Part shown: piece by piece, positions 18,436-57,952 of the stretch
How positions within the stretch are numbered: position 1 is the first letter of the stretch
Layout: each line of letters begins with the position of its first letter
Assembly (NCBI GenBank): GCA_964655235.1
Contig: CAZZLX010000001.1
Location: forward strand, 1,842-65,841
Direction: 5' to 3'
DNA length: 64,000 bases
DNA from: an uncultured Rhizobium sp.
GTDB lineage: Bacteria; Pseudomonadota; Alphaproteobacteria; SHVZ01
The notes under the pieces: model-generated
Told to the model about the DNA's origin: nothing
What the model saw: only the letters and a program-made list of their open reading frames with translations
Database searches by the model: none
Position numbers and translations under genes: made by a program

Positions 18436-18436
18436 A

Positions 18437-30807: not shown

Positions 30808-30837
30808 CGGCGCCCCATCGCCTGGAGGTGAGACGCG

Positions 30838-31113
30838 TCAGGTGATGTCGCTGATGTCGACTGGACCGTGACGGAACACGATCCACTTCTTAGTGTCCGG
30901 GCGGAACTCGATGCCGTAGGCGGTCTTCAGGAAGATGCGCAGCGGAGGCACGCCGCCGCCCTCGCGCTGGGTGCGGTCGGCGTCGAGCATCGGAGTCTTG
31001 GAGAAGACGTTGGCCCAGGCCTTCGGCGGATCGCCGTCCTTGTAGCCTTCCTCGTCGTTATTGACCACGTCGCAGAGCTGCCAGGCAGCCTCGACATCGT
31101 CCCAAGCCGTCAT
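30838..31113 (-). CDS. Small conserved hypothetical protein (91 aa)
   Basis: ATG at 31113 is preceded by GGAGGA. MTAWDDVEAAWQLCDVVNNDEEGYKDGD... Upstream of and co-oriented with the TPR-GT61 gene. Confidence 0.55.
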   Translation of the reverse strand: MTAWDDVEAAWQLCDVVNNDEEGYKDGDPPKAWANVFSKTPMLDADRTQREGGGVPPLRIFLKTAYGIEFRPDTKKWIVFRHGPVDISDIT

Positions 31114-31232
31114 CGTCTTCCTCCAATTACGGGTCTGCGACCCGCGTAGAATGGCCGGGTTGCGGCCGGCGGTCCAGCTAATGCACAAATCACCCGCAGT
31201 CCGTCAATAGTTTGCCGTGACAGAGGGTTGGC

Positions 31233-34948: not shown

Positions 34949-36696
34949 CGCCCGCACTTCACGCGATGAAGGCGCTCATCGATGCCGGGCTGGATCATCA
35001 TCGACACGGCCGCGCATCCGAGGCGGCCGAACTGTATCGGCAGGCGATCGCGGCGGGAGCCGGTGCGCCGGCGCGAGATCTTCTCGGCGTCGTGCTCACC
35101 GAGCAGGCTCGAGCGGCGGAAGCGGAGGTAGAGTTTCGCCGGGCCCTGATCCACGAGCCTTCGCTCGCCAGCGCCCATGGTCACCGCGGCAACGCCCTCG
35201 CCGCACGAGGTCGCTGGCCGGAGAGCGTCGGCAGCTACCGTCGTGCCCTCTCGATCAGCGGTCCCGACCCCCTCTGGCTGCGCAATCTCGGCGGCGCGCT
35301 GATGAAAGCGGGCGATGTCGTCGGCGCTTTTGCCGTCTTTGCGGCCGCGAATGCCCGACGGCCCGGCGAGAGCGCGACGCTGAACGACCTCGGTCGTGCC
35401 TCCGTCGAACTCGGCCGCATCGACATGGCCGGATGTTTCTTTCGTCAGGCGGTTGCATCGGATCCCAGTCATCCCGAAGCGGCCCTCAACCTGGCGCTAG
35501 CCGAGCTCAGTCGTGGTGATGGCGCGGCGACGCGCTGCCACGCGCTGAGAGCAGGAGCCTTGTCGACGGCCTCGCCGGACGTCATCAACGCCTTGGGAGC
35601 CGCCGATCTCGCCGAGGACCGTCCCGATGCCGCCGTGTCCCGGCTCCGCGAAGCCGTGAGGCGACGACCGGACTTCGCTGAAGCGCACTACAACCTCGGA
35701 CTTGCCGACTTCGACCGCCTCCGGCTCTCCGAGGCCAAGGTCCATCTCCGGCGCGCGCTCGACCTGAAGCCAAGCTATGCCGAGGCCCGATGGAACCTCG
35801 CGCTTGCACAGCTGCTCGAGGGAAACTTCGCCGACGGCTGGCGCGGCTACGAAGCGCGCTGGCGCATGCGTCGGTTTCCCACGCGGCCTCGCAATTGGCC
35901 GGTTCCCGAATGGGCGGGCGAGGATCTGGCTGGCCGGCGAATCCTTCTTCATGCGGAGCAGGGTCTTGGCGACACGCTGCAGTTCATCCGGTACGCGCCC
36001 CTGGTGGCCGCGCGCGGCGGGCGCGTAATCCTCGAGTGCCAACGGCCGCTTCGTCGCCTCCTGGCCCTCATGCCGTCGATCGAGGAGGTCTGCGTACAGG
36101 GCGATGCCCTGCCTGCATTCGACCGGCACGCGCCGCTGATGTCGTTGCCGCGCATCTTTCAGACAACTCTCGCGACAATTCCACAGGACGTGCCCTATCT
36201 GCCGACAAGCAAACCGGCATTCCATCGCCCGAAACATCCCGTCATCGGAGTCGTGTGGGGCGGAAGCGCGCTACATCCGCGCGACCGGGCCCGCTCCATC
36301 TCGCCCGAAACGGCCCGAGCCCTGGTGCGCCGGCTGATGGAAGCCGGCATCGGCGAGGTCGTCAGTCTCCAGTTCGGGCCGCGGGCCGCCGAGCTAGACG
36401 ACCTTATTACCTGTCCTGTCGGCAATAAGGACTTTCTGGATACCGCACGAGTCCTAGAGGACATCTCAGTCGTCGTCGGCGTGGATACTTCGGCACTTCA
36501 CCTGGCCGGCGGCCTCGGGCGCCCGGGTCTCGTCCTTCTCAACCATATTCCGGACTTCCGGTGGCTTCTCGGACGCCTGGACTCTCCCTGGTATCCTACC
36601 CATCGGCTGCTCCGGCAACCGAGTCCCGGGGATTGGGCGTCTGTTCTCGAGGCCGTTCCCGCCATAACTGCGGAAATCCTGGAGTCACGCACCTGA
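34945..36696 (+). CDS. TPR-repeat protein with C-terminal GT9-like domain
   Basis: ATGA overlap. Motifs: ILLHAEQGLGDTLQFIRYAPL, VIGVVWGGSALHPRDRARS, VVGVDTSALHLAGGLGRPGLVLL, SPWYPTHRLLRQ. Confidence 0.85.
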   Translation: MTPALHAMKALIDAGLDHHRHGRASEAAELYRQAIAAGAGAPARDLLGVVLTEQARAAEAEVEFRRALIHEPSLASAHGHRGNALAARGRWPESVGSYRRALSISGPDPLWLRNLGGALMKAGDVVGAFAVFAAANARRPGESATLNDLGRASVELGRIDMAGCFFRQAVASDPSHPEAALNLALAELSRGDGAATRCHALRAGALSTASPDVINALGAADLAEDRPDAAVSRLREAVRRRPDFAEAHYNLGLADFDRLRLSEAKVHLRRALDLKPSYAEARWNLALAQLLEGNFADGWRGYEARWRMRRFPTRPRNWPVPEWAGEDLAGRRILLHAEQGLGDTLQFIRYAPLVAARGGRVILECQRPLRRLLALMPSIEEVCVQGDALPAFDRHAPLMSLPRIFQTTLATIPQDVPYLPTSKPAFHRPKHPVIGVVWGGSALHPRDRARSISPETARALVRRLMEAGIGEVVSLQFGPRAAELDDLITCPVGNKDFLDTARVLEDISVVVGVDTSALHLAGGLGRPGLVLLNHIPDFRWLLGRLDSPWYPTHRLLRQPSPGDWASVLEAVPAITAEILESRT

Positions 36697-37028
36697 AACT
36701 GCCTGTTGCCAGCGGCACACACCCCTTCTGATTTTTCACGATGTCGACGAAAACAACGGCCGCCCTGTCCTTCCAGAGTGAAAGATTACCCCGACAATAC
36801 TTTCTCTTGCCGAAACAAGACAATTAACCGGCCTTGTTCGCAGTACACACGTCTCCCCGTCGCAACCAATGAGATTCTGGCGCGACTAAACGGGAAATGG
36901 GGGCAAAGGACGCGGGAAATGCGACCGGCATGCCCATCGTCCGAAGTTATTCCTTATAGCCGTTCCGGACCCGTCGGAGACGATGCCCGCCCCCCTGCTA
37001 AACCCGCGAAAATGCTGGTCCCGCCCCG

Positions 37029-37058
37029 TTGACAACGGCCAAAAGCCAGCCGTATAAA
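37029..37058 (+). promoter_or_regulatory. Near-consensus sigma70-type promoter (TTGACA-N18-TATAAA) for the Thr/Ser-rich secreted protein gene
   Basis: TTGACA at 37029-34, an 18-nt spacer, TATAAA at 37053-58. It closes a 420-bp comparatively AT-rich intergenic region. GGAG lies 11 nt before the ATG at 37123. Confidence 0.55.
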
Positions 37059-37122
37059 CCGTGAGCCGCGGGCCTTGGACCCGAAAACGGCATGTCGTCA
37101 ACGTAACTGGAGCTGGAAAAAA

Positions 37123-38484
37123 ATGTTTGAGACTCAGAGCTCTCGCAAGAGGCTGCTGCTGGCGACGACGGGTCTGGGAACCGTCATGACGACCATGTCG
37201 TTCCTGGGTGTCATGTCGCCTGCTTCCGCGTCGTCGCTCGTTGTGAGCGCTGCGAACACCTTCGCTCGTCAGCTGACTTCGACCGGCAACGCGACCCTGA
37301 GTGGCACCACCATTCAGCTAATCACCACGGCCGCGACGCTCACGACCGGTAACTTCATCACCTTCGGTCTGCCTTCGGGCATGACCTTCGCCGCCAACCC
37401 GACCGTCGGGTTCTCGGCTGGTGTCAACCTGGCGCTGACCCTCTCGACGGGCGGCTCGGGTGCTGCCTCGGCCGTCTACCAGGTGACCACCGCGAGCTCC
37501 GGTTCGACCGCGGTCTCGCTGACGGGCATCCAGGTCTCGGGCCTGCAGACCTACGTCTCGACGAACTCGACGGCGAACACCTTCAACATCTCTGCCACCC
37601 TGACTGCTGATACCGCCACTCAGCAGGGCAGCGCGGCTTCGACCATCGTCGCCAACATCACGGACGCGGCCTCCGCGACCCAGGCTGCTGGTGCGGCTCA
37701 GACCATCGACGTCTCGTCGGGCGGCAACCGCTTCATCTCGGGTACGGGCACGGCTCTGTTCGCCCCGCTCGGCACGGTCGCCTTCGCCAACGCCGCTATC
37801 GCCCCGAACGACGTCAGCGGCGGCAGCGCCGTCTCGATGAGCGCTCAGGGTGGTGCGATCACCGTCAGCGGCTCGCTGACCGGTATCTCGACCGTCTACG
37901 CGATCGCCACTGCTGTTGCCACGACCTGCGCCACCGCGGCTCCGTCGGGTGCGTTCACCGCGACCCCCGGCTCGACCTCGGCGACGCTCACCGGGCTCAG
38001 CGTGTCGACGTTCCAGGTCTGCGCGATCGCCAACGGCTCGAGCGTGCTGAGCAACGGCTCGATCACTGTTCGCGGCGTCGTCACGACCAGCAACAACGGC
38101 ACGATCACCGGCACGACGACCTCCAACGCCGTCGGTTACAGCGGCACGGTGCGCACGTCGAACTACTTCGTCGGTGTCACGGGCGGCTACAGCTCGTTCG
38201 CCTACGCGGTGAACGGCGGCACCTCGGCGTCGACCGCCCTGGTCAGCGTCCGCCGCTCGGACGGCGCGACCGCGGTCGGCTCGCTCAGCAGCCTCGCTGC
38301 TGGCGCCTCGGCTCTGTTCGGCGCGTCGGACATCAACACCGCGGTCGGCAGCACCTTCCTGGGTGATGCGTCGTCCCGCGCTCAGGTCACCTTCCTGTTC
38401 GGTTCGAGCAGCGTGAAGCTGACCGGCCTGCTGCTGAACCCGGCGGGCGTTGTCACCAACATGGGCGCGGTCTTCAGCGACTAA
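37123..38484 (+). CDS. Secreted Thr/Ser/Ala/Gly-rich repetitive protein (candidate surface/S-layer-like glycoprotein)
   Basis: Start at MFETQSSRKR (ATG 37123). The ORF-track start at 37075 is a 5' extension. Sec signal peptide with an AxA site (…MSPASA|SS). The mature protein is ~45% Thr+Ser+Ala+Gly, with few charged residues and no Cys pair. Seven N-x-S/T sequons and many S/T clusters. Strong promoter and terminator. Confidence 0.8.
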   Translation: MFETQSSRKRLLLATTGLGTVMTTMSFLGVMSPASASSLVVSAANTFARQLTSTGNATLSGTTIQLITTAATLTTGNFITFGLPSGMTFAANPTVGFSAGVNLALTLSTGGSGAASAVYQVTTASSGSTAVSLTGIQVSGLQTYVSTNSTANTFNISATLTADTATQQGSAASTIVANITDAASATQAAGAAQTIDVSSGGNRFISGTGTALFAPLGTVAFANAAIAPNDVSGGSAVSMSAQGGAITVSGSLTGISTVYAIATAVATTCATAAPSGAFTATPGSTSATLTGLSVSTFQVCAIANGSSVLSNGSITVRGVVTTSNNGTITGTTTSNAVGYSGTVRTSNYFVGVTGGYSSFAYAVNGGTSASTALVSVRRSDGATAVGSLSSLAAGASALFGASDINTAVGSTFLGDASSRAQVTFLFGSSSVKLTGLLLNPAGVVTNMGAVFSD

Positions 38485-38508
38485 GCCACAAGAACTACGC
38501 TTCAACTC

Positions 38509-38538
38509 AAAGGGCCCCGAAAGGGGCCCTTTTCTTTT
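38509..38538 (+). terminator. Rho-independent terminator
   Basis: Stem GGGCCCC (38512-38518), loop GAAA, perfect complement GGGGCCC (38523-38529), then T-tract TTTTCTTTT (38530-38538). Confidence 0.85.
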
Positions 38539-38617
38539 GCAGCTCGACGGTCGGAGGTACGCTTCCGTCCGGACTCGCTTCAGGACCTCCGCCATCGATC
38601 CCGACGTTGCACGAGCC

Positions 38618-39994
38618 GTGGAGCTGGATGTCGCCGGCCGGCGCACCGAGGCGACGGCCCTGGCGCGCGCTGTCCTGCAGCGCACGCCCTCCTCGGTCGA
38701 GGCGCGGTGCGTGCTGGCGACGATCGCCCTTCGTGATGGGTCTGCTTCCACCGCCGGAGCCCTGCTACGGCAGGCCTGCGTGCTCGAGCCCAGCTATCCT
38801 CAGGTTCACTACTACCTCGCCCTGTGGCGTCCGGATCGTGGCGACATCCCGGGCATGGAGTCGTCCCTTGCCCGGGCCCGCCAACTGCTCGGCACGGGAT
38901 CCAGAATGGCGACGAGTCTCGAGGCCTTCGCCGGCGCGTGGAGATGGCTCTCCGACCGCAGGGTCCCGTCTATGCCCCTGCGGTCAACTTCCCGTTCATC
39001 CGAGCCCGGAAGCACGCGCTGGCTGTTCGTCTGGCGCGATCTGGAGGAGTTCCTTGACCACTTCGACCAGGCACAGGTCGGAGGTCGGAGCACGTTCCGC
39101 CTGCCCAAGCGGGACCAGGGACCATCCTCGGACCCATCGGAGCAGCTGCTACGCTATTGCAAGGACGTCGATCCGGAGATCGTGGTCTTCCTGCCGGGAA
39201 CGGCCCAGCATCGAAATCCGACGCTCGGCGTCTTTCGGCAGCTGCGTGCCCAAGGGATCCCGACCGTCCTGTTCGTCGCCGATCTACGAAAGGCGCTTTG
39301 GCAAGGAGTCGCAAATCGCGTTGCCGATGCCTTCGACCTCGTGCTGCCGATCGACGGCTGCAGTCTCGAGAGCCTGCCCTCGCTCCGTCACCTGGGCCGA
39401 CGCTTCTTTCGCGGCTGGTCGCCGATATCCCCAGGAAACGTTCCGCCTTTCGCCACCCGGCGGTCTTGCGTGAACCTTGTAGGCAGCCTGTGGGGCGAGC
39501 GCGTTCACGGCGTCCAGGCGCTGAGAAATGCCGGGATCGAGGTGATCACCCGTCCGTCCGCGATCGAGGCGCATCGGGATCCGAATTTGCCGGCCCACAA
39601 GACTCTTTCGACGGCGACCTATCTAGACTCGCTCAGGCAGGCTCAGCTGACGGTCAACTACAGCGCCTGCAGCACGGGAGACGGGCACCAGCTCAAAGGC
39701 CGGGTCCTGGAAGCGGCGGCGTGCGGCTCGATGCTTCTCGAGTCGGCCAACGACGTCACCTGCGACTTCTTCGAAGAGGGACGCGAATACGTCTCTTTCG
39801 ACGGAGCGGCCGATCTCGTCGAGAAGGTCCGGTATTTTCTCGCTCATCCCGAACGCGCCGCGGAAATCGCCGCGAACGCGACATCGCGGTTCCTCAGGGA
39901 CTACACCGCAACGACGTTCTGGACTCGCGTCCTCGCCGCCGCTCGCGAGAACAATGCCTCGATCGAGTCCGCTAGGCGACGTCTCCACCCCTGA
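38618..39994 (+). CDS. TPR-repeat protein with C-terminal CgeB-like (GT1-type) glycosyltransferase domain
   Basis: GTG at 38618 (VELDVAGRR...) is preferred. The ORF-track start at 38450 runs through the terminator. The C-terminus GRVLEAAACGSMLLESANDVTCDFFEEGREYVSFDGAADLVEKVRYFLAHPERAAEIAANATSRF matches the CgeB/Glyco_trans_1_2 C-terminal pattern. Confidence 0.7.
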   Translation: MELDVAGRRTEATALARAVLQRTPSSVEARCVLATIALRDGSASTAGALLRQACVLEPSYPQVHYYLALWRPDRGDIPGMESSLARARQLLGTGSRMATSLEAFAGAWRWLSDRRVPSMPLRSTSRSSEPGSTRWLFVWRDLEEFLDHFDQAQVGGRSTFRLPKRDQGPSSDPSEQLLRYCKDVDPEIVVFLPGTAQHRNPTLGVFRQLRAQGIPTVLFVADLRKALWQGVANRVADAFDLVLPIDGCSLESLPSLRHLGRRFFRGWSPISPGNVPPFATRRSCVNLVGSLWGERVHGVQALRNAGIEVITRPSAIEAHRDPNLPAHKTLSTATYLDSLRQAQLTVNYSACSTGDGHQLKGRVLEAAACGSMLLESANDVTCDFFEEGREYVSFDGAADLVEKVRYFLAHPERAAEIAANATSRFLRDYTATTFWTRVLAAARENNASIESARRRLHP

Positions 39995-42023
39995 CGCTCC
40001 GGAGTGCCTTGACGAGGTTGTGGGCGTAGAGATTTGCGTTGCAGAGGGGTGAGTTGATCACCTGGCTGCGGAGGTTGGCTCGGAGGGTTGCGAGTGCGGG
40101 GAGATCTCGCGCCAGCGCATCGGCCCTCTCGACGTAGCCCTGGTGGTCGGGCGCCACCAGATGATCGAGCCCCACCAGCGGCAGGAAGCCCGCTCCCATC
40201 CGCGCGATGAAGCGCTCGCCCGCCAGCGTCACCACCGGAACCCCCATCCACAGAGCCTGGAACGTCGCGTTGCACCCGACGAACGGAAACGGATCCAAGG
40301 CAATGTCGACCTGATGGTAGATCGACAGATGCGCCGTCCCCTCCGTCGAGCCGGCCTCGAACTCGATCCGGTCCCCGCTCACCCCAAACCCTGAGAACGA
40401 CGACCGGATATGGGCGCGAAGCGTCGGGTCTTCGTAGAAATGCAGATACTTGAGAAGAAGCCGAGATCCCGGAACGGCCCGCATCACTGATGCCCAGGTC
40501 GACAACGTCGAGGGCGACAGCTTCGCCGGGTTGTTGAAGCACCCGAACGTCACCCGGCCCGAGCTCAGAGCCGGAAGCGCCGATACCAGAGGCTCCTCCG
40601 GCGGGCGGCGGAACACGTACCAGCACGGCAGCCGCAACAGCCTCTCGCTGAACTTCTCCTCCGTCCCCAATGGCGTCGTCGCCTCGTCGCCTACCCAGTA
40701 GTCCATCTCCGCCAGACCCGTCGTCGTCAAATCGAACAGAGACGCCTGGACCGGCGCCGCCCTCGACGCAAACACACGAAGACGACCACCAGCCGTGTGA
40801 CCCGCAACCGATACCAGAACGTCGATCCCGTCCTCGCGAACCGCAGAAACAACCTCCTCGTCGCTCAGATCCGCAATCACACGCCACCCATCCGCCAGAG
40901 ACGCAAATCGAGCACTCATCTCGTCCGGACGAGCGACATTCGCATACAGAAAAACCTCGACACCCCCCCGATCCATCCCCTCAACAATCGAAAGCAACGT
41001 CTCCCCTACCGCATGCCGGCGGAGATCGGCCGAGACAATGCCCAGCCGCAGCTGCCGTCCATCAGGCAAGTCCGGCCGCCTCGGCATCGGCAATCGGAGG
41101 GCCTGATCGTGACGACCGGCGACAGCCCTGAACAGCTCCTCGGCCGTGGTCGAGTCCCGGTACAGCAGCGACATCACGCGATTGCTGGCGAAAGCCGCAT
41201 TCGACGGCGCGAGCATGACAGCGCGACCACCCCACGCAGCGGCCTCATCCGGGAAAGCCAGCGTTGACGACGCCACGCCGAGGTTGCTCACGGCGTCCGC
41301 ATCGGTCGGCTCCAGCACGACGGCCCGCCGCAAAGCAGTCCGTGCGTCCCCGAGCCGTCCTGCACGATGGAAGGCGCGGCCAAGATTGTTCTGGAGGCCG
41401 GCGAGAACCGGATCGAGTTCCGCCGCCTTCTCGAGTGTGGCGATGCGGTCCCGGCCACGATCCGAAAGCTCGTATGCGTTCGCCAAATTGACCAGGATCC
41501 GCGCCGATCCGCGATCCATCTGCGACGCCCGGACCAGCGCAGCGATCGAGGCACTGATCGCCTTCTCGCCGAGGAGAAGGATTCCGAGGTTCGATTGCAC
41601 CGCGGCGCTTCCGGGCTCTAGGCAGGCATGCCTTTGCGCGAAGCGCAGAAGATCCCTGACCGAGAGCACGGTCCGGCACCGCCCGATCAGGTTGCCGTAG
41701 GCCGAGGCGAAAAGAGGATCGCAGGCGATGGCACGGCGATAGATCCCGACGGCCGAAGAAAGATCGGCCGGTGCGACAGCTTCGCCCATGTTGCCGTGAA
41801 ACAACGCAACGGCAGGATCGACCGCCAGCGCGATGCGCAGGAAGCGCAGAGCGAGGTCGCTTCGTCCGCGCTGAAGCTCCCCCACACCTCGAAAATGCCA
41901 TGCCCAGGAATGCAGGGGGATCTGTGCGAGGATCTGCTCGTAGAGTCCGAGGGCCTCCGGCACCCGACCGGCCTGATGAAGCTGAAGCGCGTTCTGGAAC
42001 TGGGCGGCAGGATCGTTCGGCAT
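39972..42023 (-). CDS. TPR-repeat protein with C-terminal GT41-like domain (paralog A; catalytic domain identical to paralog B)
   Basis: 683 aa. Motifs: LRLGIVSADLRRHAVGE, VTFGCFNNPAKLSP, VDIALDPFPFVGCNATFQALWMGVPVVTLAGERFIARMGAGFL. Residues ~338-674 are encoded by the 1012-bp repeat. Confidence 0.85.
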   Translation of the reverse strand: MPNDPAAQFQNALQLHQAGRVPEALGLYEQILAQIPLHSWAWHFRGVGELQRGRSDLALRFLRIALAVDPAVALFHGNMGEAVAPADLSSAVGIYRRAIACDPLFASAYGNLIGRCRTVLSVRDLLRFAQRHACLEPGSAAVQSNLGILLLGEKAISASIAALVRASQMDRGSARILVNLANAYELSDRGRDRIATLEKAAELDPVLAGLQNNLGRAFHRAGRLGDARTALRRAVVLEPTDADAVSNLGVASSTLAFPDEAAAWGGRAVMLAPSNAAFASNRVMSLLYRDSTTAEELFRAVAGRHDQALRLPMPRRPDLPDGRQLRLGIVSADLRRHAVGETLLSIVEGMDRGGVEVFLYANVARPDEMSARFASLADGWRVIADLSDEEVVSAVREDGIDVLVSVAGHTAGGRLRVFASRAAPVQASLFDLTTTGLAEMDYWVGDEATTPLGTEEKFSERLLRLPCWYVFRRPPEEPLVSALPALSSGRVTFGCFNNPAKLSPSTLSTWASVMRAVPGSRLLLKYLHFYEDPTLRAHIRSSFSGFGVSGDRIEFEAGSTEGTAHLSIYHQVDIALDPFPFVGCNATFQALWMGVPVVTLAGERFIARMGAGFLPLVGLDHLVAPDHQGYVERADALARDLPALATLRANLRSQVINSPLCNANLYAHNLVKALRSVRGGDVA
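40000..41011. repeat. Perfect 1012-bp direct repeat, copy 1 (copy 2 at 42074..43085; period 2074 bp)
   Basis: Six spot-checked stretches (about 340 bp in total, at 40001-40050, 40021-40080, 40081-40140, 40441-40500, 40861-40920 and 40921-41011) match the second copy base for base. The ORF-track translations from both copies are identical (40143..40394 = 42217..42468, 40450..40701 = 42524..42775). The boundaries were found by inspection: 39999 c vs 42073 a, and 41012 c vs 43086 g. Confidence 0.9.
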
Positions 42024-42027
42024 TCGC

Positions 42028-44097
42028 TCAGGCCCGAGCCGGCTGTCCAGGGTGTTCCTGCATCGCGACCCGACGGAGTGCCTTGACGAGGTTGTGGGCG
42101 TAGAGATTTGCGTTGCAGAGGGGTGAGTTGATCACCTGGCTGCGGAGGTTGGCTCGGAGGGTTGCGAGTGCGGGGAGATCTCGCGCCAGCGCATCGGCCC
42201 TCTCGACGTAGCCCTGGTGGTCGGGCGCCACCAGATGATCGAGCCCCACCAGCGGCAGGAAGCCCGCTCCCATCCGCGCGATGAAGCGCTCGCCCGCCAG
42301 CGTCACCACCGGAACCCCCATCCACAGAGCCTGGAACGTCGCGTTGCACCCGACGAACGGAAACGGATCCAAGGCAATGTCGACCTGATGGTAGATCGAC
42401 AGATGCGCCGTCCCCTCCGTCGAGCCGGCCTCGAACTCGATCCGGTCCCCGCTCACCCCAAACCCTGAGAACGACGACCGGATATGGGCGCGAAGCGTCG
42501 GGTCTTCGTAGAAATGCAGATACTTGAGAAGAAGCCGAGATCCCGGAACGGCCCGCATCACTGATGCCCAGGTCGACAACGTCGAGGGCGACAGCTTCGC
42601 CGGGTTGTTGAAGCACCCGAACGTCACCCGGCCCGAGCTCAGAGCCGGAAGCGCCGATACCAGAGGCTCCTCCGGCGGGCGGCGGAACACGTACCAGCAC
42701 GGCAGCCGCAACAGCCTCTCGCTGAACTTCTCCTCCGTCCCCAATGGCGTCGTCGCCTCGTCGCCTACCCAGTAGTCCATCTCCGCCAGACCCGTCGTCG
42801 TCAAATCGAACAGAGACGCCTGGACCGGCGCCGCCCTCGACGCAAACACACGAAGACGACCACCAGCCGTGTGACCCGCAACCGATACCAGAACGTCGAT
42901 CCCGTCCTCGCGAACCGCAGAAACAACCTCCTCGTCGCTCAGATCCGCAATCACACGCCACCCATCCGCCAGAGACGCAAATCGAGCACTCATCTCGTCC
43001 GGACGAGCGACATTCGCATACAGAAAAACCTCGACACCCCCCCGATCCATCCCCTCAACAATCGAAAGCAACGTCTCCCCTACCGGGTGGCTGCAGAGGT
43101 CCGCCGATACAAACCCAATTCTGAATTTCCCCCTGGATCCGTTCGCAAGCGTACGCGACGGAGCGGGCGCATTCCGGATCATGCTGCCACTCGATGTCGC
43201 ACGCATCAGCTCGGATGCGCTCGTCGAGTCCGCATAGAGTAGCGTCATCACGTAGTTGCCGCGAAAAGCCGCATTCGTCGGCGCGACCGCCAAGGCCCGC
43301 CGAACGAACGCTTTGGCGCCCTCCGCGTCGCCCAAGGCGAGAGCGATATTTCCCAGATTGTTGAGGGCTTCCGCCTCGTCGGAATGCAGCGCCAAGGCGC
43401 GCCTGAGAGAGCGCCGCCCTTCGCCGATGCGTCCCGCGCGCTGATAGGCGCGACCCAGATTGTTGTGACTGCTCGCCGCGTGCGGGCTGAGCCGAGCCGC
43501 CTTCTCGAGAACCACTGTCGCCCGATCGGCCTCGCCTCCGACCACCAGGGCGCGGCCGAGATTGGCGAGGATCTCGGCCGCATCCGGCGAGAGCGATACC
43601 CCCCGCATCAACGCCTTCTCCCCGTGAGGAAGGTCACCCCGATCGCAAAGCAGCAATCCGAGATTTGACTGGGCGGCCGGATTGTTAGGCTCGACGGCGA
43701 CGTGACGGCGCGAAAATCGGAGCAGCGTTCCGGCACTCTCGATCGCGCGGCATCGAGCGACCAGGTTCCCGTATGCCGACCCGAACATGACGTCGCAGCT
43801 GATCGCACGACGATAGAGGCGTGCCGCAGATCCAAGGTCCGCGCCCGCCAGGGCTTCGCCCAGGTTACCGTGGAACACCGCGACGGACGGGTCGATCGCA
43901 AGCGCAACGTGAAGGCACCGAAGCGCGTCGCTCGACCGCCCTCGCTGCAGCTCGATCAGGCCCAGATAGTGCCATGCCCAGGAATGGAGCGGGACGCCCG
44001 ACAGCACGTCGCGGTAGCGCCTCTCGGCCTCGTCAACCCGGCCGACCTGATGCAGACCTAGGCCTTCCTGGAATATCCCGTTCCAATCACCTGCCAT
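42028..44097 (-). CDS. TPR-repeat protein with C-terminal GT41-like domain (paralog B)
   Basis: 689 aa. The N-terminal TPR region is distinct. From ...VGETLLSIVEG onward it is identical to paralog A until the final ~10 residues. Confidence 0.85.
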   Translation of the reverse strand: MAGDWNGIFQEGLGLHQVGRVDEAERRYRDVLSGVPLHSWAWHYLGLIELQRGRSSDALRCLHVALAIDPSVAVFHGNLGEALAGADLGSAARLYRRAISCDVMFGSAYGNLVARCRAIESAGTLLRFSRRHVAVEPNNPAAQSNLGLLLCDRGDLPHGEKALMRGVSLSPDAAEILANLGRALVVGGEADRATVVLEKAARLSPHAASSHNNLGRAYQRAGRIGEGRRSLRRALALHSDEAEALNNLGNIALALGDAEGAKAFVRRALAVAPTNAAFRGNYVMTLLYADSTSASELMRATSSGSMIRNAPAPSRTLANGSRGKFRIGFVSADLCSHPVGETLLSIVEGMDRGGVEVFLYANVARPDEMSARFASLADGWRVIADLSDEEVVSAVREDGIDVLVSVAGHTAGGRLRVFASRAAPVQASLFDLTTTGLAEMDYWVGDEATTPLGTEEKFSERLLRLPCWYVFRRPPEEPLVSALPALSSGRVTFGCFNNPAKLSPSTLSTWASVMRAVPGSRLLLKYLHFYEDPTLRAHIRSSFSGFGVSGDRIEFEAGSTEGTAHLSIYHQVDIALDPFPFVGCNATFQALWMGVPVVTLAGERFIARMGAGFLPLVGLDHLVAPDHQGYVERADALARDLPALATLRANLRSQVINSPLCNANLYAHNLVKALRRVAMQEHPGQPARA
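42074..43085. repeat. Perfect 1012-bp direct repeat, copy 2
   Basis: See copy 1. Confidence 0.9.
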
Positions 44098-44398
44098 CGG
44101 ACTCGCTCTGGAACGCTCGCTTCGCCTTTCGCCTGACCCGACGCCAGGGCTCCTCGCTGACGGGAGCGCTGCTTGATCGATAAAACCTTAATACAATCAA
44201 CGCGCTATATCGATCGATCAAACTCGAGCCGACCGGACTTCCTAACGCGGTATCAAGTGCCCATATACAGGCCAGCGTCCTCGTGGACACGCTCCACGGG
44301 CAAGGGCGCCGCAAGCGCTTCTCCCAAACGTTGACGAATTTCGCCGGGAGGATGTCGACGACGTCCTCCCGGACCTTTCGTCCGACCTCTACGGAAAA

Positions 44399-44776
44399 TC
44401 AGCGGCAGCGCTTGAAGGTAGGCGTCGGGGCTCCGTCGCGCATCCCGTCCTTTATGACCGAGCCGTTCGGGCCCTGTTGCCAGGGTCGAATGGTCGCACC
44501 CACGATCTTCCAGACGGTGGGGCCGCCACCATCGTTGAAGTCCAGCGTGAAGAACTCCGGCGACTCCTCCGTCAAGGTCGGGGAGCCGAAGTCGGCCGCC
44601 ACGCCCTTGTTGACCGTATAGGCGATCAGCTTGCCGCTCGGGTTCAGGCGATAGCCGATCTTGAAGTCTCCTCCGCAGTCCCCCGCCCACTCGCCGACCA
44701 CGAGAGGCTGCCGCGACTGAGCGCCCGCGCCGGAGGCGACAAGCAAAAGCGCGATCACGAAAAGGGCCCTCAGCAT
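44399..44776 (-). CDS. Small secreted protein of unknown function (signal peptide)
   Basis: Internal ATG at 44776 gives MLRALFVIALLLVASGAGA|QS. 125 aa with two Cys. The ORF-track start at 44848 adds an Arg-rich extension. Confidence 0.6.
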   Translation of the reverse strand: MLRALFVIALLLVASGAGAQSRQPLVVGEWAGDCGGDFKIGYRLNPSGKLIAYTVNKGVAADFGSPTLTEESPEFFTLDFNDGGGPTVWKIVGATIRPWQQGPNGSVIKDGMRDGAPTPTFKRCR

Positions 44777-44967
44777 GAAGTCGCTCCTCGCATTGTCGGC
44801 TCCGCGCCGACGGATCCAGCGCCACAGATCTATCATCAACCGGTGCAAGAGATCGAGCCGCTTGGCCCTGCAACCGAGCGTTACGAGGCAATGGCCGAGC
44901 CCTGAAGGGGTGGTCGCCCCGACCTCGATCTCCTATAGATTGGTCGTTCAACACCACCGGACACTCG

Positions 44968-46596
44968 ATGAAGACGAAAAGGAACCGGGATCTGCAGCGG
45001 GCGCGCAACGCGCCCGTTGCCGGCAATCTTTTTGCCGAGGCCAGCCGCGCGTACACCGCTGGCGATCTCGACGCCGCCGAGCGTCACGCGAGCCAGCTCC
45101 TACGCGCCCAGCCAAGAAATGCCGATGCACTCAATCTCATCGGCGTCATCGCCGCCGCCCGAAGCGACATGCCTCGCGCGGCGAAATTTCTCGGCCAGGC
45201 GGCCGAGCTCATGCCTCGATCCGCCTCGATCCGAGGCAATCTCGCCCTCGCGCTGAAGATGCTCGGCCGCTGGCATGACGCGATCGCGCAGGCACGCGAG
45301 GGAGTCCGGCTCGAGCCCGGCAACTCGATCATCTGGAACACGCTTTGCGCCGCGCAATACGAGGTCGGGGACCATGCCGGCGCCTTGGTCAGCGGCCGCA
45401 CGGCGATCGCCCTAGGCCCGACCATGGCCGAGGCCTGGAACAACTTCGGTAACGTTCTCGTCGAGTTCGGCCACGCGCGGACGGAAAGCGCCTTTCGCAT
45501 GGCCCTCGCGCTCAATCCCTTCCTGGTTCAGGCATGGTCGGGGCTCGGCAGCGCCGCGCTCAGGCAGAAGCGCCACGAAGCGGCTCAAGCGGCCTTCGAG
45601 CGAGCCCTCACCATCCGCTGGCCCAGCCGATGGTGGCCTGGAAATCGCCCGGCCTCCGTCCTCCCGCCGCCGCAGAGTCTCACCAACACCGTCAAGCTGC
45701 GCCACGACATCGAGCAGTTCGAAGCAGGCCGCCGGTCGGGGATCTATGGAGCGGAGTTCGATCCGATCATTTCGGCCTATCGCCGTGCACTCGATCGATT
45801 TGTCGGGCGATATGGCGCGTCGGCGAATGGCGCCCTTCATCCCGAGGACGTCGCTGCCATCGGCGATGTCTACGGACGCATCGTCAACTGGACCCCTCCG
45901 GCCAAGATCGCCGGTGGAGCCGTGGCGGCCGATTGGGATCGCGCTGACGTCGCACGACGCTACGCGGTGCCCCCCGGTATCTGCTGGGTCGACGGCTTCC
46001 TGACGGCGGAGGCCCTCTCCTCTCTCCGCAAGTTCTGCCTCGACTCGACCATCTGGAACGACATCAGTCACAATTACCAGGCGGCGCCGGTCGCTCGCGG
46101 ATATCTCGGGGCCTACGCCGCCGACGGCTTCTTCGCCCCGCTGCTCTTCCAGATCGCCGAGGAGCTGGCCGCGGCGCTTCCCGGGATCTTCGGTGGACAC
46201 CCTCTTCGCCAGATCTGGGCGTACAAGTACGAGAAGAAGCTCGAGGGCATCGGAATCCATGGCGACGACGCCGCGGTCAACGTCAACTTCTGGATCACGC
46301 CGGACAGCGCCAACCTGGACCCGGACTCCGGTGGCCTGATCGTCTATCCGGTGGAGGCGCCGGCTGATTGGGACTTCGCCGCGATCAATACCGAGCCGGA
46401 GACGATGCATCGCTTCGTCGAGGCGGCCGGGGAGCCTCCGGTCAATGTTCCGTACCGGCAGAACCGCGCCGTCATCTTCAACTCCGACCTCTTCCATGCG
46501 ACGGCGCCTCTCCGATTCCGTCCTGGATACGAAAACCGCCGCATCAACGTGACGATGCTGTTCGGCCAGCGACAGCCACGATCACGTTCAGCATGA
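44968..46596 (+). CDS. TPR-repeat protein with C-terminal 2OG-Fe(II) oxygenase-like (cupin) domain; candidate protein hydroxylase
   Basis: 542 aa. N-terminal TPRs. The C-terminus has IGIHGDDAAVNVNFWITPD (HxD) and a distal VIFNSDLFHAT (His). The architecture resembles Asp/Asn beta-hydroxylase. Confidence 0.7.
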   Translation: MKTKRNRDLQRARNAPVAGNLFAEASRAYTAGDLDAAERHASQLLRAQPRNADALNLIGVIAAARSDMPRAAKFLGQAAELMPRSASIRGNLALALKMLGRWHDAIAQAREGVRLEPGNSIIWNTLCAAQYEVGDHAGALVSGRTAIALGPTMAEAWNNFGNVLVEFGHARTESAFRMALALNPFLVQAWSGLGSAALRQKRHEAAQAAFERALTIRWPSRWWPGNRPASVLPPPQSLTNTVKLRHDIEQFEAGRRSGIYGAEFDPIISAYRRALDRFVGRYGASANGALHPEDVAAIGDVYGRIVNWTPPAKIAGGAVAADWDRADVARRYAVPPGICWVDGFLTAEALSSLRKFCLDSTIWNDISHNYQAAPVARGYLGAYAADGFFAPLLFQIAEELAAALPGIFGGHPLRQIWAYKYEKKLEGIGIHGDDAAVNVNFWITPDSANLDPDSGGLIVYPVEAPADWDFAAINTEPETMHRFVEAAGEPPVNVPYRQNRAVIFNSDLFHATAPLRFRPGYENRRINVTMLFGQRQPRSRSA

Positions 46597-48152
46597 CGGA
46601 AGTGCCGCCGTTGGCACACCCGTCGACCGACATCGCGGAAGCGCGCCGCACGCTTCTAGCCGAAGCCACCCGATCGACGGCCGCTTCTCGCCGGGCCTAT
46701 CGAGCCCTCCTCGCCCTCGTGCCGGGGGACGCCCACACGCTCATGTCCCTCGGCACACTCGCGGCCCAGGCGAGAGATGCCGAGGACCTGGCACTTCTTC
46801 GGCGCGTGCCTCACCTCGATCCGGAAGGCGCCGACGGGTATGCCAACTATGGAAGCGCTCTTCTCTCTAGGCGGGATCCCGCTTCGGCGCAGCCGGCGCT
46901 CCGCCGGGCTCTCGCCTTGCAGCCCGACCATGTCACCGCCTGGTATAACGAAGGCCTTTCCCGTCAGCAGGCCGGAGAGATCCGGGATGCGTCGACGGCC
47001 TACCGGCGCGCCGTCGCCGCCAGTCCATGCCACATCGAGGCGCGCCGAAATCTCGCCGTCTGCCTTCATTCCCTGAAGAAGATCGACGAGGCCCTGCATC
47101 TCCTGCAGGACCTCGTGAGGGAAACCCCCGATCGGGCCGACATACGCGAGAACATCGCCTTCATCCTCCTCGACATCGGACGGACCGACGACGCCTTCGA
47201 GGAGCTGGCGCGCGCCGCCGAGACCCGATACGGGCTCGGCTCGGCAGCTTCCGGCTCAGATCCGGCGCTCAGCCAGGTCACACCCGTCCGGCTCAAGCAC
47301 GATCGCGAGCAGCTCGATCATCTGCTCGCCCAAGGTCGTGGCGACGCTGCGCTCCGGCAGCTTCGCGACACCTACGCGGGCTTGCTGGAACAGGTGCCTC
47401 ACACCGCGCACGCGGTCCAGGCGCTCGCGCTCTCGCGGGAACAGTCCCGTGTCCTGGCGCCCTGGTACGGCCGTCGCTACGCGAGACGAGAGGCTTTGGC
47501 GGTTCCCGGCAGCGCGCTCAATCCCGCGCTCGATCTTCACGACGTCGAACGGCGCTATCTCGACTCCAGACCGGAAATCACCGTCATCGACGGTCTGCTT
47601 TCCGACGCATCGCTGCTCGCGCTCCGCCGGTTCTGCCTGGAGAACAGCTTCTGGATCCGAAGCTACGGCGGCGGCTATCTCGGATCATTCATGGAGGACG
47701 GTTTCGTCTGCCCGCTGATCGCGCAGATTGCCGGTGAGCTCAGGGCCGGCATGAGCCGGGTCGTCGGGCCGCATCCATTGAAGAAGGTCTGGGGCTTCAA
47801 GTACGACAGCCGCCTTTCTGGCATCAATCTGCATGCGGACTTCGCCGCTGTGAACGTCAATTTCTGGATCATGCCCGACAGTGCAAATCGCGATCCGTCC
47901 TCGGGTGGCCTGATCATCTGGGACAAGCCGGCGCCACTGTCCTGGGGGTTCGAGGAGTACAACCGCTCGCCTGAGCTTGCCCGGCGCTATCTCGATGGCG
48001 AAGGGGCGAAGGCCATCACCGTGCCCTATCGCGCCAACCGGGCGGTCATCTTCAACTCGAACCTGTTCCACGAGACCGATCGCATCGACTTCAAGGACGG
48101 CTACGAGAACCGGCGCGTCAACATCACGCTTCTCTACGGATCGCGATCATGA
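46593..48152 (+). CDS. TPR-repeat protein with C-terminal 2OG-Fe(II) oxygenase-like domain (paralog)
   Basis: ATG at 46593 overlaps the upstream stop (ATGA). Motifs: INLHADFAAVNVNFWIMPD, VIFNSNLFHET. ~45% identical to the preceding gene over the C-terminal domain. Confidence 0.7.
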   Translation: MTEVPPLAHPSTDIAEARRTLLAEATRSTAASRRAYRALLALVPGDAHTLMSLGTLAAQARDAEDLALLRRVPHLDPEGADGYANYGSALLSRRDPASAQPALRRALALQPDHVTAWYNEGLSRQQAGEIRDASTAYRRAVAASPCHIEARRNLAVCLHSLKKIDEALHLLQDLVRETPDRADIRENIAFILLDIGRTDDAFEELARAAETRYGLGSAASGSDPALSQVTPVRLKHDREQLDHLLAQGRGDAALRQLRDTYAGLLEQVPHTAHAVQALALSREQSRVLAPWYGRRYARREALAVPGSALNPALDLHDVERRYLDSRPEITVIDGLLSDASLLALRRFCLENSFWIRSYGGGYLGSFMEDGFVCPLIAQIAGELRAGMSRVVGPHPLKKVWGFKYDSRLSGINLHADFAAVNVNFWIMPDSANRDPSSGGLIIWDKPAPLSWGFEEYNRSPELARRYLDGEGAKAITVPYRANRAVIFNSNLFHETDRIDFKDGYENRRVNITLLYGSRS

Positions 48153-49853: not shown

Positions 49854-50109
49854 AAGCGTTCAGACACCAGGGGCCGGAACCGCCCTACGCGCTTCTCTCT
49901 GCTCGAGTCTCTCACCTCATCAAGCGCGGCATTGTTGTTCCGCAATATCCATGGTCGAAGCCGAATTGGGACGGGGTTTAAAGAACCACCTTTCGGCGAG
50001 TTGAGCGATTGAATCCTCTTACCAATAGCGTTTGAATATGCTGACATTTTTTTGCGTCTACGGGAATGCACCTTGACGCTTGTCCCCGCGCCTAAGGGTA
50101 AAACGAAGA

Positions 50110-50721
50110 ATGTTTGCTCTCTCTCCCGGTGCCACTATTTCGACGGATACGCAAGCATCGGGGCCGGTATCTCTAGGAGACGGGGTTGAAATTTTAGCCG
50201 GAGTCCGATTTGGCAAATTCACCCTTGTAAACGCTTGGTCAACAGTCAATGCAGCTGATATCGGGAACTACGTTTCTATCGGTGAATATGTTCGCATTAA
50301 TGTCTTCAATACGCATCCGATCAACTGGCTAAGCACGCATCCTTTTCAAGTCAATGACGCTCACTTCTCAGAGATTCCGGGCTATCGAGACGTTCACCGA
50401 ATTGCTCGAGCCTGGCATCCCGGAACACTTCACATCGGCCACGATGTCTGGATCGGCAGCCACGCCAAGTTACTGAACGCAGTAACCATCGGAACCGGCG
50501 CCGTTGTTGGCGCTGCCGCCGTTGTCGCAGACGACCTTCCGCCGTTCGCTATCGTTGGCGGGGTCCCGGCCAAGGTAATTCGTTACAGGTTCGAACAGCC
50601 AACGATCGCCCGCCTTCTTGCGTCCCGGTGGTGGGATCTTGACCCATGGGACCTAAGTGGTGTGCCGTTCAATGACATCAATCTCGCCCTCGATGAGATA
50701 GAACGAAGGAAAGGCGCATGA
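50110..50721 (+). CDS. Xenobiotic acetyltransferase family (Vat/CatB-type hexapeptide-repeat O-acetyltransferase) in a low-GC island
   Basis: MFALSPG start (ATG 50110). Motifs: HPINWLSTHPF, IGHDVWIGSHAKLL, PPFAIVGGVPAKVIRYRF, SRWWDLDPWDL, matching the VatD/SatA/CatB pattern. GC is about 52% against about 68% for its neighbours; the upstream 250 bp are also AT-rich. Confidence 0.8.
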   Translation: MFALSPGATISTDTQASGPVSLGDGVEILAGVRFGKFTLVNAWSTVNAADIGNYVSIGEYVRINVFNTHPINWLSTHPFQVNDAHFSEIPGYRDVHRIARAWHPGTLHIGHDVWIGSHAKLLNAVTIGTGAVVGAAAVVADDLPPFAIVGGVPAKVIRYRFEQPTIARLLASRWWDLDPWDLSGVPFNDINLALDEIERRKGA

Positions 50722-50766
50722 GGGCACAACCAAGCTTGCCGCGCCTCTGAAGAGCACCACCGAGAT

Positions 50767-57942: not shown

Positions 57943-57952
57943 GACCGAAATC

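Follow-up and report, generated by a model that had tools for sequence, protein, structure and literature searches.

Two adjacent genes in the 64-kb stretch of DNA analyzed here (the window) encode predicted GT41 glycosyltransferases that share an exactly repeated catalytic tract. The pair is very probably an old tandem duplicate in which the catalytic halves have been homogenized by recurrent interlocus gene conversion while the TPR halves have diverged, where "recurrent" rests on two lineages. The target-recognition halves would thus drift apart while recombination keeps the catalytic halves of neighboring genes letter-identical. The evolutionary process is already known; the pair is a clean case of it in bacteria and not a new kind of system. 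The window was compared with four other genomes, L001, L002, L035 and L036, all of them metagenome assemblies; the tandem pair is seen in two genomes (the window and L002), and in one 1.2-kb fragment from a third sample (L035). The features of the locus are as follows.

42028..44097, minus strand: W_up, the upstream gene, an ORF of 689 aa with a TPR superhelix (aa ~5-304) and a GT-B catalytic domain of the GT41/OGT-SPINDLY type
39972..42023, minus strand: W_dn, the downstream gene, an ORF of 683 aa with the same architecture
43086..44097, minus strand: TPR half of W_up with beta1 and the His loop (aa 1-338), orthologous to the upstream gene of L002 (69% aa identity) and to the single gene of L001 (83% aa identity)
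42074..43085, minus strand: repeat copy in W_up, the putatively converted catalytic tract (aa 339-674 and partial codons), exactly equal to 40000-41011
41012..42073, minus strand: unique spacer between the repeats, 1062 bp, orthologous to the downstream gene of L002 (65% aa identity) and missing from L001
41012, minus strand: 5' (gene-sense) boundary of the tract in W_dn, the first base of an Ala codon GCG by codon alignment
40000..41011, minus strand: repeat copy in W_dn, the putatively converted catalytic tract (aa 339-674 and partial codons), exactly equal to 42074-43085
39972..39999, minus strand: W_dn-specific C-terminal tail and stop, with a 23-nt overlap with the 3' end of the convergent gene 38450-39994(+)

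Base-by-base comparison of 40000-41011 with 42074-43085 gives 1012 bp with no mismatches at an offset of 2074, bearing out the identity and the two gene models that a sequence-only reading of this DNA had reported. The match cannot be extended by even one base at either end. Past the 3' ends of the genes identity at this offset falls immediately to the random level of ~25%, and on the TPR side it is 44-65%, as for diverged paralogues. Chance is excluded as the source of the identity because the flanking paralogous sequence is only ~56% identical. At the 5' boundary of the tract identity falls from 100% to ~60% within one codon, with position 43086 (CCG, Pro) in W_up equivalent to 41012 in W_dn by codon alignment. 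Both ORFs remain in frame across all four repeat junctions. The spacer consists of the W_dn TPR half with beta1 and the His loop (41012-42023), four intergenic nucleotides (42024-42027), and the stop and paralogue-specific C-terminal tail of W_up (42028-42073).

The W_up stop is followed after 4 nt by the W_dn start (...TGA GCGA ATG...), and a terminator scan finds no terminator-like site at this junction. The sole minus-strand match in the interval lies within the W_dn coding sequence (41827-41807), and such matches across the region are fewer than in shuffled sequence. From this layout the two genes are likely to be co-transcribed. The convergent gene that overlaps the W_dn tail is a TPR/Glyco_trans_1_2 gene.

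Both proteins match Pfam Glyco_transf_41 (PF13844; E = 6e-40 for W_dn and 4e-43 for W_up), with scores of 137.4 and 148 bits that pass the curated cut-off of 25, together with many TPR models, in agreement with the architecture read earlier from the sequence. Sequence matches of W_up in the PDB are SPINDLY (6e-87, phmmer), T. terrenum OGT, human OGT and XcOGT. The AF2 model of W_up (pLDDT 85.9, pTM 0.81) has an N-terminal TPR superhelix and a GT-B catalytic domain, and its top Foldseek matches are to SPY (8dth/7y4i, E = 1e-38) and OGT, the latter from T. terrenum (5djs, TMt 0.88), Xc (XcOGT) and human. We therefore classify W_up and W_dn as predicted protein glycosyltransferases of the GT41 (OGT/SPINDLY) type. 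In keeping with this, a motif reading SADLCSHP in W_up and SADLRRHA in W_dn aligns with SSDFGNHP of human and Drosophila OGT, and H337 is conserved in at least 90% of 41 homologues. Seven invariant Asn residues (78, 111, 145, 179, 213, 247 and 281) are spaced by 33-34 residues, as in the asparagine ladder of OGT. From the established OGT literature, we take the His of the DFGNHP motif to be in the active site and the ladder to line the TPR lumen. The two proteins differ from OGT and SPINDLY in having no intervening domain and in being organized as a large paralogue array, and they are known from sequence and a model.

The identical tract had been supposed to include the whole catalytic lobe; it covers most of the domain (aa 339-674) but not quite all of it. 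The catalytic Pfam match begins at about aa 320, so that the first beta-strand (beta1, aa 325-331) and the loop with the conserved His (aa 332-337) lie outside the tract. In the model, the first N-lobe helix of the GT-B domain has its N-cap at the 5' boundary.

W_up and W_dn are homologous from end to end, with 504 of 679 residues identical. The earlier reading saw in the pair a shuffling of modules, with one catalytic cassette given a new TPR; in fact the TPR halves are homologous and colinear, and the seven-Asn ladder is common to both, pointing to duplication of the whole gene long ago. Grafting of a foreign TPR is rejected, as the paralogy extends over both genes in full.

The history of the pair is seen most clearly by comparison with L002, which has ~74% nucleotide identity to the window, is colinear with it over 12 kb, and contains the same tandem gene pair. 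L002 has its own exact repeat, of 1000 bp (11016-12015 and 13105-14104). The tract is thus 100% identical inside the window and 100% identical inside L002, while between the genomes it is 80.4% identical in nucleotides and 81% in amino acids. The TPR halves follow the opposite pattern. They are 69% identical between the two upstream genes and 65% between the two downstream genes, but 47-51% in all combinations of upstream with downstream, with 49% for W_up against W_dn. Neighbor-joining trees with 500 bootstrap replicates were calculated for the two parts separately. In the TPR tree the downstream genes of the window and L002 form one split and W_up and the L001 gene another, both with 100% bootstrap. 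In the tree of the catalytic tract, the two genes of the window group together, as do the two of L002, again both with 100% bootstrap. The trees are therefore incongruent across the breakpoint, with the TPR halves sorting by orthology and the catalytic parts by genome. A tract in which paralogues within a genome are more alike than orthologues between genomes, bounded by a sharp breakpoint with incongruent trees on either side, is what is expected of gene conversion.

In the distant outgroup L036 a single gene occupies the syntenic position. Its TPR half is as far from the upstream type as from the downstream type (48-50% aa identity), and its catalytic part has 61% aa identity to every one of them; unconverted catalytic halves would therefore be expected to be ~60% identical, and not 100%. 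Since both orthology and synteny link the TPR halves and flanking regions of the window to those of L002, the duplication predates speciation and independent duplications are excluded.

Of the two origins proposed earlier, very recent duplication or ongoing conversion, these data favor the second. The absence of differences over 1012 bp would equally be expected if the tandem duplication were very recent, or if the domain had been replaced once, recently, with no ongoing process. Yet the unit of such a duplication would be the whole gene, and the paralogous TPR halves have a dS of 1.2-1.8, at which synonymous sites are saturated. Both TPR types have a separate orthologue in L002, which independently carries an exact repeat with the same 5' end, 20% diverged in sequence from that of the window. 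It is far more likely that homogenization has been continuous than that a first conversion acted, twice and with one and the same endpoint, over 1 kb already diverged to the level of L036. We consider a recent origin extremely unlikely, and it appears to be effectively refuted by the comparison with L002.

Exact kilobase repeats are classic trouble spots for assembly, and a segment might have been falsely duplicated, or similar copies forced to be identical by consensus or polishing. L035, a low-coverage contig from another sample of a near-identical strain (99.2% identity), has seven of its eight mismatches in the repeat part, at 1.4% there against 0.2% in the unique part; this may reflect occasional differences between the copies, or errors of sequencing. 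Against an artefact, the same L035 contig covers the end of the upstream catalytic copy, the W_up tail and the start of the downstream TPR, and thus gives independent support for the tandem order. The spacer is a genuine coding sequence, is under selection and has an orthologue in L002; L002 was assembled by others with the same structure and the same boundary nucleotide. The reading frames moreover continue through the four junctions. Forced consensus could mask just a handful of real differences between copies, and this would not change a pattern of at least ~99% identity within genomes against 80% between them. An artefact is thus highly improbable.

Our preferred explanation, concerted evolution restricted to one domain, would operate as follows. 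The whole TPR-GT41 gene would have been duplicated in tandem long ago, after which the N-terminal TPR halves diverged and would now be held distinct by purifying selection. The C-terminal ~1 kb, nearly the whole GT-B catalytic domain, would be repeatedly overwritten between copies by homologous recombination, presumably dependent on RecA, so that the two catalytic copies evolve as one sequence. The tract would be fenced on both sides by DNA too diverged for extension of heteroduplex, formed by the TPR side on one flank and by the paralogue-specific tails and flanking regions on the other. The 5' fence would be held at the same nucleotide in two lineages: in L002 the boundary sequences are CAT CCG and CAT GCG, each followed across the boundary by GTT, placing it at the same nucleotide as in the window. 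Directly upstream there are synonymous differences (GTA/GTC, GCG/GCC, GAC/GAT and CAC/CAT), and that side has therefore been unconverted for a long time. Selection on paralogue-specific residues near the active-site His (CSHP versus R[R/H]HA) probably helps to hold this fence.

Between orthologues the ratio omega is 0.13-0.22 in the TPR halves of either type and 0.17-0.21 in the tract, showing purifying selection at the level of codons, and on this measure both genes are therefore functional. Synonymous divergence of the tract between species is 0.335 and 0.64, compared with ~0.48 and 1.0-1.3 for neighboring genes. This lower value in the tract is not predicted by simple neutral conversion.

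Enzymes of the GT41 class bind the acceptor protein with the TPR half and the donor sugar nucleotide with the GT-B catalytic domain. By analogy we infer the same division of labor in W_up and W_dn, with an acceptor protein and a donor sugar nucleotide as their putative substrates. Homogenization would then give the two enzymes common catalytic properties and donor specificity, with different acceptor recognition.

A second consequence would be that the locus, with two perfect direct repeats of 1 kb separated by 1062 bp, readily undergoes deletion or amplification of the RecA type. Direct repeats are subject to RecA-dependent deletion. Recombination between the copies would remove the spacer and one repeat copy, 2074 bp in all, to leave a chimera of the upstream TPR, the catalytic tract and the downstream tail. 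This deletion was anticipated from the sequence, and L001, which at ~86% identity is closer to the window than is L002, has a single gene with exactly that architecture. Compared for copy number, the locus thus holds a pair in L002 and one gene in each of L001 and L036. The single gene of L001 would be the product of true recombination or else of collapse during assembly. L001 also lacks a second GT41 gene of the array (window ~48233-50789); there the paralogues are only 68% identical, so that collapse is impossible and the gene content of the GT41 array does vary.

It had further been suggested that such recombination is an on/off or specificity-switching mechanism. In a programmed or selected switch, recombination between the repeats would delete or regenerate the downstream gene, turning a glycosylation specificity on or off at the level of the population. 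In its favor, direct repeats of 1 kb do recombine at appreciable frequency, L001 has the architecture of the deletion, and gene content in the array varies. But deletion between direct repeats is irreversible, both genes are full-length and conserved under purifying selection in two lineages, and the state of L001 may be the result of assembly collapse. A switch system would be recognized by reversibility, and by inverted repeats or recombination sites with a recombinase or silent cassettes. The 64-kb window has no inverted repeats of 40 nt or longer, and most of its large ORFs, scanned against Pfam and NCBIfam, show no recombinase or invertase and no silent cassettes. Nothing indicates a programmed switch, and we regard one as very unlikely. 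In Helicobacter pylori, gene conversion between outer-membrane-protein paralogues of the babA/babB type forms chimeras, with dispersed loci, observed switching, and a role in host adaptation or antigenic variation. The GT41 pair resembles these in having paralogues with near-identical segments and a differing recognition segment, where recombination makes chimeras of altered specificity, but here the genes are adjacent, the enzymes cytoplasmic, and no switching is observed.

A close parallel to concerted evolution of a single domain in the GT41 pair is mammalian TLR1/TLR6, tandem paralogues sampled in nine lineages, with conversions independent in each species and tract limits nearly identical across species, as in the GT41 pair (Kruithof et al. 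2007, PMC2077338). In both systems the N-terminal recognition part groups by orthology and a C-terminal region of ~300 aa is closer between paralogues than between orthologues, and in both the process is taken to hold a common functional module back from divergence, leaving the other domain to diversify. The GT41 pair differs in being bacterial, in that a glycosyltransferase catalytic domain and not the TIR/TM region is homogenized, in identity that is perfect over 1 kb, and in the sampling of two lineages. In bacteria, tufA/tufB and the 26 genes of Wang & Chen 2018 (PMC6053082) are likewise duplicates that have outlasted speciation and that gene conversion keeps near-identical in each genome, and there too synteny and flanking regions exclude independent duplication. 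In those cases whole genes are homogenized and the copies are functionally equivalent, whereas in the GT41 pair one domain is homogenized and the other kept different. The term glycosyltransferase occurs 0 times in that survey.

The pair lies in a 64-kb island that contains ten TPR-GT41 paralogues as well as genes for pseudaminic acid. Among the latter, a PseI equivalog (pseudaminic acid synthase, 499 bits) is found at 60445-61551, and other nonulosonic-acid genes are a cytidylyltransferase (54610-55374) and a PseB-like gene (2625-3941). These lie 10-37 kb from the GT41 pair with many other glycosyltransferases in between. Experiments on FlmG, the flagellin glycosyltransferase of Caulobacter and Brevundimonas, showed that the TPR binds the acceptor, that the choice of donor (Pse versus Leg) lies with the GT-B domain, and that a TPR/GT-B chimera is active (PMC7591256; bioRxiv 10.1101/2022.03.25.485807). 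W_up and W_dn share with FlmG an N-terminal TPR and a C-terminal GT-B domain, a likeness at the level of domain architecture. They differ in that the window has ten such genes and not one, and that the donor of their nearest relatives of solved structure, SPY and OGT, is GDP-fucose or UDP-GlcNAc and not a CMP-sugar. In addition, tblastn with FliC termini reveals no flagellin gene in the window, L001 or L002, and no ORF scanned has a flagellin Pfam match; flagellins could be encoded elsewhere in the genome.

L002 contains a second tandem GT41 pair, with a ~300-nt tract of 98-100% identity that has the sequence of the "48-type". It is only in this pair that the direction of transfer is visible. 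The sequence of this tract indicates directional conversion, and hence that conversion recurs in the island.

Positions 40000-41011 and 42074-43085 of the window are identical over 1012 bp at an offset of 2074; one base further, on either side, the exact match is lost. This computed comparison confirms what the sequence-only reading had claimed, an identical repeat within two tandem minus-strand GT41 genes. The genes are separated by 4 nt:

42028-44097, minus strand, W_up, the upstream gene, ORF of 689 aa
39972-42023, minus strand, W_dn, the downstream gene, ORF of 683 aa

At this offset the sequences agree at about 25% of positions past the 3′ ends of the genes and at 44-65% over their remaining 5′ parts. 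Homology of the two proteins extends over their whole length, with 504 of 679 residues identical; the first 338 amino acids, which form the TPR half, are 49% identical, and amino acids 339-674, encoded by the repeat tract, are 100% identical. The TPR halves are therefore diverged paralogues and not unrelated modules, so the earlier idea of a catalytic cassette shuffled behind a new TPR domain is not supported as worded. No record matched either protein in exact-sequence look-ups, and megablast of 39.5-44.5 kb against plasmids gave no match. A scan found no terminator-like site at the junction of the two genes, the single minus-strand match of the interval (41827-41807) lying inside the W_dn coding sequence; the promoter and terminator scan is uninformative, as it gave fewer sites than in shuffles.

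Scanning the genome collection gave two syntenic relatives. L002, a MAG labelled uncultured Rhizobium, is colinear with the window over 12 kb at about 74% nucleotide identity, and carries both genes with its own exact repeat of 1000 bp (L002 11016-12015 and 13105-14104). L001, the alphaproteobacterial MAG JBGALV01, is about 86% identical and has one gene of 680 aa. A full HMMER scan of representatives, with the TPR half of W_dn as query, added one further relative, protein P0140, the other matches being mostly giant TPR proteins. P0140 is encoded in three assemblies (L036-L038, one a Logan contig) within a syntenic island that has a single gene at this position. The comparison of copy number at orthologous loci called for earlier thus gives the pair in L002, and one gene in L001 and L036-L038. 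A word-index protein search with the same TPR half was dominated by generic TPR proteins (best match 35%), and is uninformative on absence because it missed P0140, which is 51% identical. Only distant GT41 genes, at no more than 45% identity, were found by scanning metagenome contigs with a five-sequence alignment. The protein search with the catalytic half gave one close fragment (P0018, leading to contig L035), and all other matches were at 59% or below. The clade is barely sampled and the comparators are all metagenome assemblies; the perfect identity of the repeat copies may be slightly overstated by assembly consensus.

In a codon alignment of five genes (W_up, W_dn, both L002 genes and the L001 gene) the two halves of the protein have different histories. 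The TPR halves group by orthology, with amino acid identities of 69% between W_up and its L002 counterpart, 83% between W_up and L001, and 65% between W_dn and its L002 counterpart; any upstream type compared with any downstream type gives 47-51%. The catalytic tracts group by genome, being 100% identical within the window and within L002, with nucleotide identities of 80.4% between window and L002 and 88.8% between window and L001. Neighbor-joining bootstrap support is 100% for each of these two incongruent topologies. The protein of the outgroup L036 is equidistant from the upstream and downstream TPR halves (48-50%) and is 61% identical to all the catalytic halves; judged by that level, catalytic halves free of conversion would be expected to be near 61% identical. 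The incongruent grouping, the dS of 1.2-1.8 between paralogous TPR halves and the L036 distances rule out a very recent duplication, one of the two origins first proposed for the repeat. The other, ongoing gene conversion, fits well: as read from these alignments, the pair shows concerted evolution confined to its catalytic part. For orthologous comparisons ω is 0.13-0.22 in the TPR halves and 0.17-0.21 in the tract, so selection maintains the two genes.

The absence of any difference in 1012 bp sets a 95% upper bound of about 0.3% on divergence between the copies, compared with 11% between window and L001 in the same region. The last homogenisation was therefore very recent in both pair-bearing lineages. 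Between species, tract dS is 0.335 (L001) and 0.64 (L002); it is 0.62 and 1.1-1.35 for the TPR halves, and about 0.48 and 1.0-1.3 for most neighbouring genes. GC-biased gene conversion is not supported as the cause of the low tract dS, GC3 being 0.765 in the tract and 0.746 in both TPR halves. We propose that homologous recombination between the copies repeatedly overwrites one tract with the other, and that tract extension would halt where similarity collapses.

The 5′ boundary is the same in the window and L002. Identity starts at the second base of a Pro codon (CCG) in the upstream gene and of an Ala codon (GCG) in the downstream gene, directly 3′ of a conserved His in SADL[CS/RR/RH]H[P/A], followed by VGETLL. 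This His aligns with that of SSDFGNHP in human and Drosophila OGT. In the model of W_up the first N-lobe helix has its N-cap at this boundary, so strand β1 (325-331) and the His loop (332-337) lie outside the tract. Synonymous differences are present directly upstream, indicating that the 5′ fence is old, and selection on residues specific to each paralogue next to the His may contribute to holding it in place. The 3′ boundaries in the window and L002 are 4 codons apart, at the onset of the paralogue-specific tails. W_dn shares 23 nt of its 3′ end (39972-39994) with the 3′ end of a convergent gene (38450-39994), so its specific tail is doubly constrained; the repeat ends 6 nt beyond the last base of the convergent gene.

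The conversion process is, on sequence comparison, apparently not unique to this pair. L002 has a second tandem GT41 pair (L002 2499-4235 and 4232-5950), orthologous to window 50767-52503 and 48147-49853, with a tract of about 300 nt that is 98-100% identical (3875-4174 and 5590-5889) at the C-terminal end of the catalytic domain. The corresponding genes of the window are 66-82% identical at that place. The L002 tract is of the type of gene 48147-49853, which indicates directional conversion. Two other GT41 genes of the window share a 77-nt match of 88% (23775-23851 and 32842-32918, also 5885-5961) spanning DIALDPFPFNG...EALWMGVP, which is probably motif conservation rather than a conversion tract.

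The single gene of L001 comprises an upstream-type TPR half with CSHP, one catalytic domain, and a downstream-type tail and flank. Window 29994-41038 aligns with L001 22034-10986, and window 42080-48232 with L001 12019-5822. This is exactly the architecture of the chimera that recombination between the repeats had been predicted to create. It is not the ancestral single-copy state, as the more distant L002 has both genes with orthologous TPR halves; L001 has therefore lost one copy, or its assembly has collapsed the exact repeat. We lean towards a real recombinational deletion. The contig is from a hybrid (OPERA) assembly, and graph assemblers usually break at exact repeats rather than skip them. 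Moreover, L001 lacks window ~48233-50789 (compared with L001 5559-5822), and so has neither GT41 gene 48147-49853 nor the low-GC stretch next to it (50000-50500, GC 0.50); the paralogues there are only 68% identical, so collapse is impossible and this difference in gene content is real.

The tandem order is supported in a second sample by L035, an independent metagenome contig of 1.2 kb, which matches window 42576-41577 at 99.2% and leads from the upstream catalytic copy, across the tail of the upstream gene, to the downstream TPR. It has low coverage and is probably chimeric, because its first 177 nt are unrelated and of lower GC. Of the eight positions at which it differs from the window, seven are in the repeat part (1.4%; L035 178-680) and a single one is in the unique part (0.2%).

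Both proteins match Pfam Glyco_transf_41 (137 and 148 bits, cut-off 25) as well as many TPR models. Their nearest solved relatives by sequence are Arabidopsis SPINDLY (SPY; E 6e-87) and the OGTs of Thermobaculum, human and Xanthomonas. In the AlphaFold model of W_up (pLDDT 85.9, pTM 0.81) amino acids 5-304 form helical repeats and a GT-B domain starts at amino acid 325; SPY and OGT structures rank first in Foldseek. Asn 78, 111, 145, 179, 213, 247 and 281, spaced by 33-34 residues, are invariant in five of five family members, a series resembling the asparagine ladder of OGT. The 37 paralogue-specific fixed positions tend somewhat to cluster shortly after a ladder Asn (offsets +1, +2 and +5), in small numbers.

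The window is a glycosylation island in which putative protein glycosyltransferases are packed unusually densely. It has ten TPR-GT41 genes and eight other TPR genes, a glycosyltransferase domain being recognisable in only three of the latter (GT61, Glyco_trans_1_2 and GT9-like).

TPR and nonulosonic-acid genes of the window
2625-3941, nonulosonic-acid gene, PseB-like
3961-6258, TPR-GT41
8991-11819, other TPR
22187-24112, TPR-GT41
24121-25881, TPR-GT41
26015-27610, other TPR
27610-29300, other TPR
29323-30807, other TPR
31233-33182, TPR-GT41
33179-34948, TPR-GT41
34945-36696, other TPR
38450-39994, other TPR
39972-44097, TPR-GT41, the pair
44968-46596, other TPR
46368-48152, other TPR
48147-49853, TPR-GT41
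50767-52503, TPR-GT41
54610-55374, nonulosonic-acid gene, cytidylyltransferase
55379-56254, nonulosonic-acid gene
56251-57942, nonulosonic-acid gene
57917-59377, nonulosonic-acid gene
60445-61551, nonulosonic-acid gene, PseI equivalog (499 bits)
61822-63654, TPR-GT41

Besides PseI, the nonulosonic-acid set includes a PseB-like dehydratase, a CMP-type cytidylyltransferase, an RmlD-like reductase, a carbamoyltransferase and a class-III aminotransferase. This suggests a modified, possibly carbamoylated, sugar of the pseudaminic-acid type. A type II secretion or pseudopilin-type set lies between glycosyltransferase genes at 12626-21051, with T2SS-F, small ORFs at 13.8-15.8 kb, a weak T2SS-K and a secretin (18913-21051).

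In FlmG, a flagellin glycosyltransferase with TPR and GT-B parts, the TPR binds the acceptor, the choice of donor (Pse or Leg) lies with the GT-B, and activity is seen in a TPR/GT-B chimera (PMC7591256; bioRxiv 10.1101/2022.03.25.485807). By analogy, W_up and W_dn would transfer the same sugar onto different proteins. Their membership of the FlmG class is not established; FlmG is a flagellin enzyme, whereas our search of the window, L001 and L002 found no flagellin gene. The evolutionary pattern alone supports the division of labour that experiments showed for FlmG, and predicts that TPR/catalytic chimeras are viable; L001 may be one. The locus is a natural experiment in modular protein glycosyltransferase evolution: divergence is open to the acceptor-recognition TPR half, whereas both enzymes have kept one and the same catalytic half over the time in which two lineages diverged by about 20-26% in DNA. 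It also points to an unusually dense ten-gene TPR-GT41 array that an uncultured lineage of Alphaproteobacteria carries next to its pseudaminic-acid genes. Practically, short-read assemblers will mis-handle such a locus.

The closest described phenomenon is in TLR1/TLR6, where the N-terminal parts are orthologous and the C-terminal ~300 aa have been homogenised independently in the individual species, within tract limits that hardly differ from one species to another (PMC2077338). Concerted evolution in bacteria is described for tuf and about two dozen further genes, with no glycosyltransferase among them (PMC6053082), and we found nothing specific in the literature on GT41 paralogue arrays or gene conversion in bacterial glycosyltransferases. 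As a mechanism, conversion between tandem paralogues is well known; the pair is a new and unusually clean case. We consider it rather unlikely that the identity is selected and not a mere mechanical by-product, the island combining variable acceptor-binding heads with a constant catalytic body, and recombination re-programming the targets. The constancy of the boundary down to a single nucleotide next to the catalytic His, the lower tract dS and the second L002 tract are compatible with such selection, without proving it. If it were true, the island would parallel, in a bacterium, TLR1/TLR6 or families with shared constant exons. Through conversion, several TPR-specific glycosyltransferases would be tied to a single donor sugar as it evolves, a change in the donor pocket reaching both enzymes at once. 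Cassette recombination would yield natural TPR/catalytic chimeras and copy-number variants such as L001, and could thereby re-programme within a population which proteins are glycosylated.

The suggestion of an on/off or specificity switch finds no backing in the window, which has no long inverted repeats and no recombinase among the scanned ORFs. A mobile element, DGR or shufflon was likewise rejected, as the repeat is in-frame GT41 coding sequence and inverted repeats are lacking; neither recombinase nor reverse transcriptase was found among the ORFs scanned, which were most of the large ones of the window.

The best-conserved gene of the neighbourhood is 37075-38484 (plus strand, 469 aa), with amino acid identities of 91% (L001) and 87% (L002) and dS of 0.20 and 0.45. 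It has no Pfam or NCBIfam match, and a long antisense ORF (37318-38751, minus strand) overlaps it. In L036 a domain-less gene of 450 aa occupies the same position.
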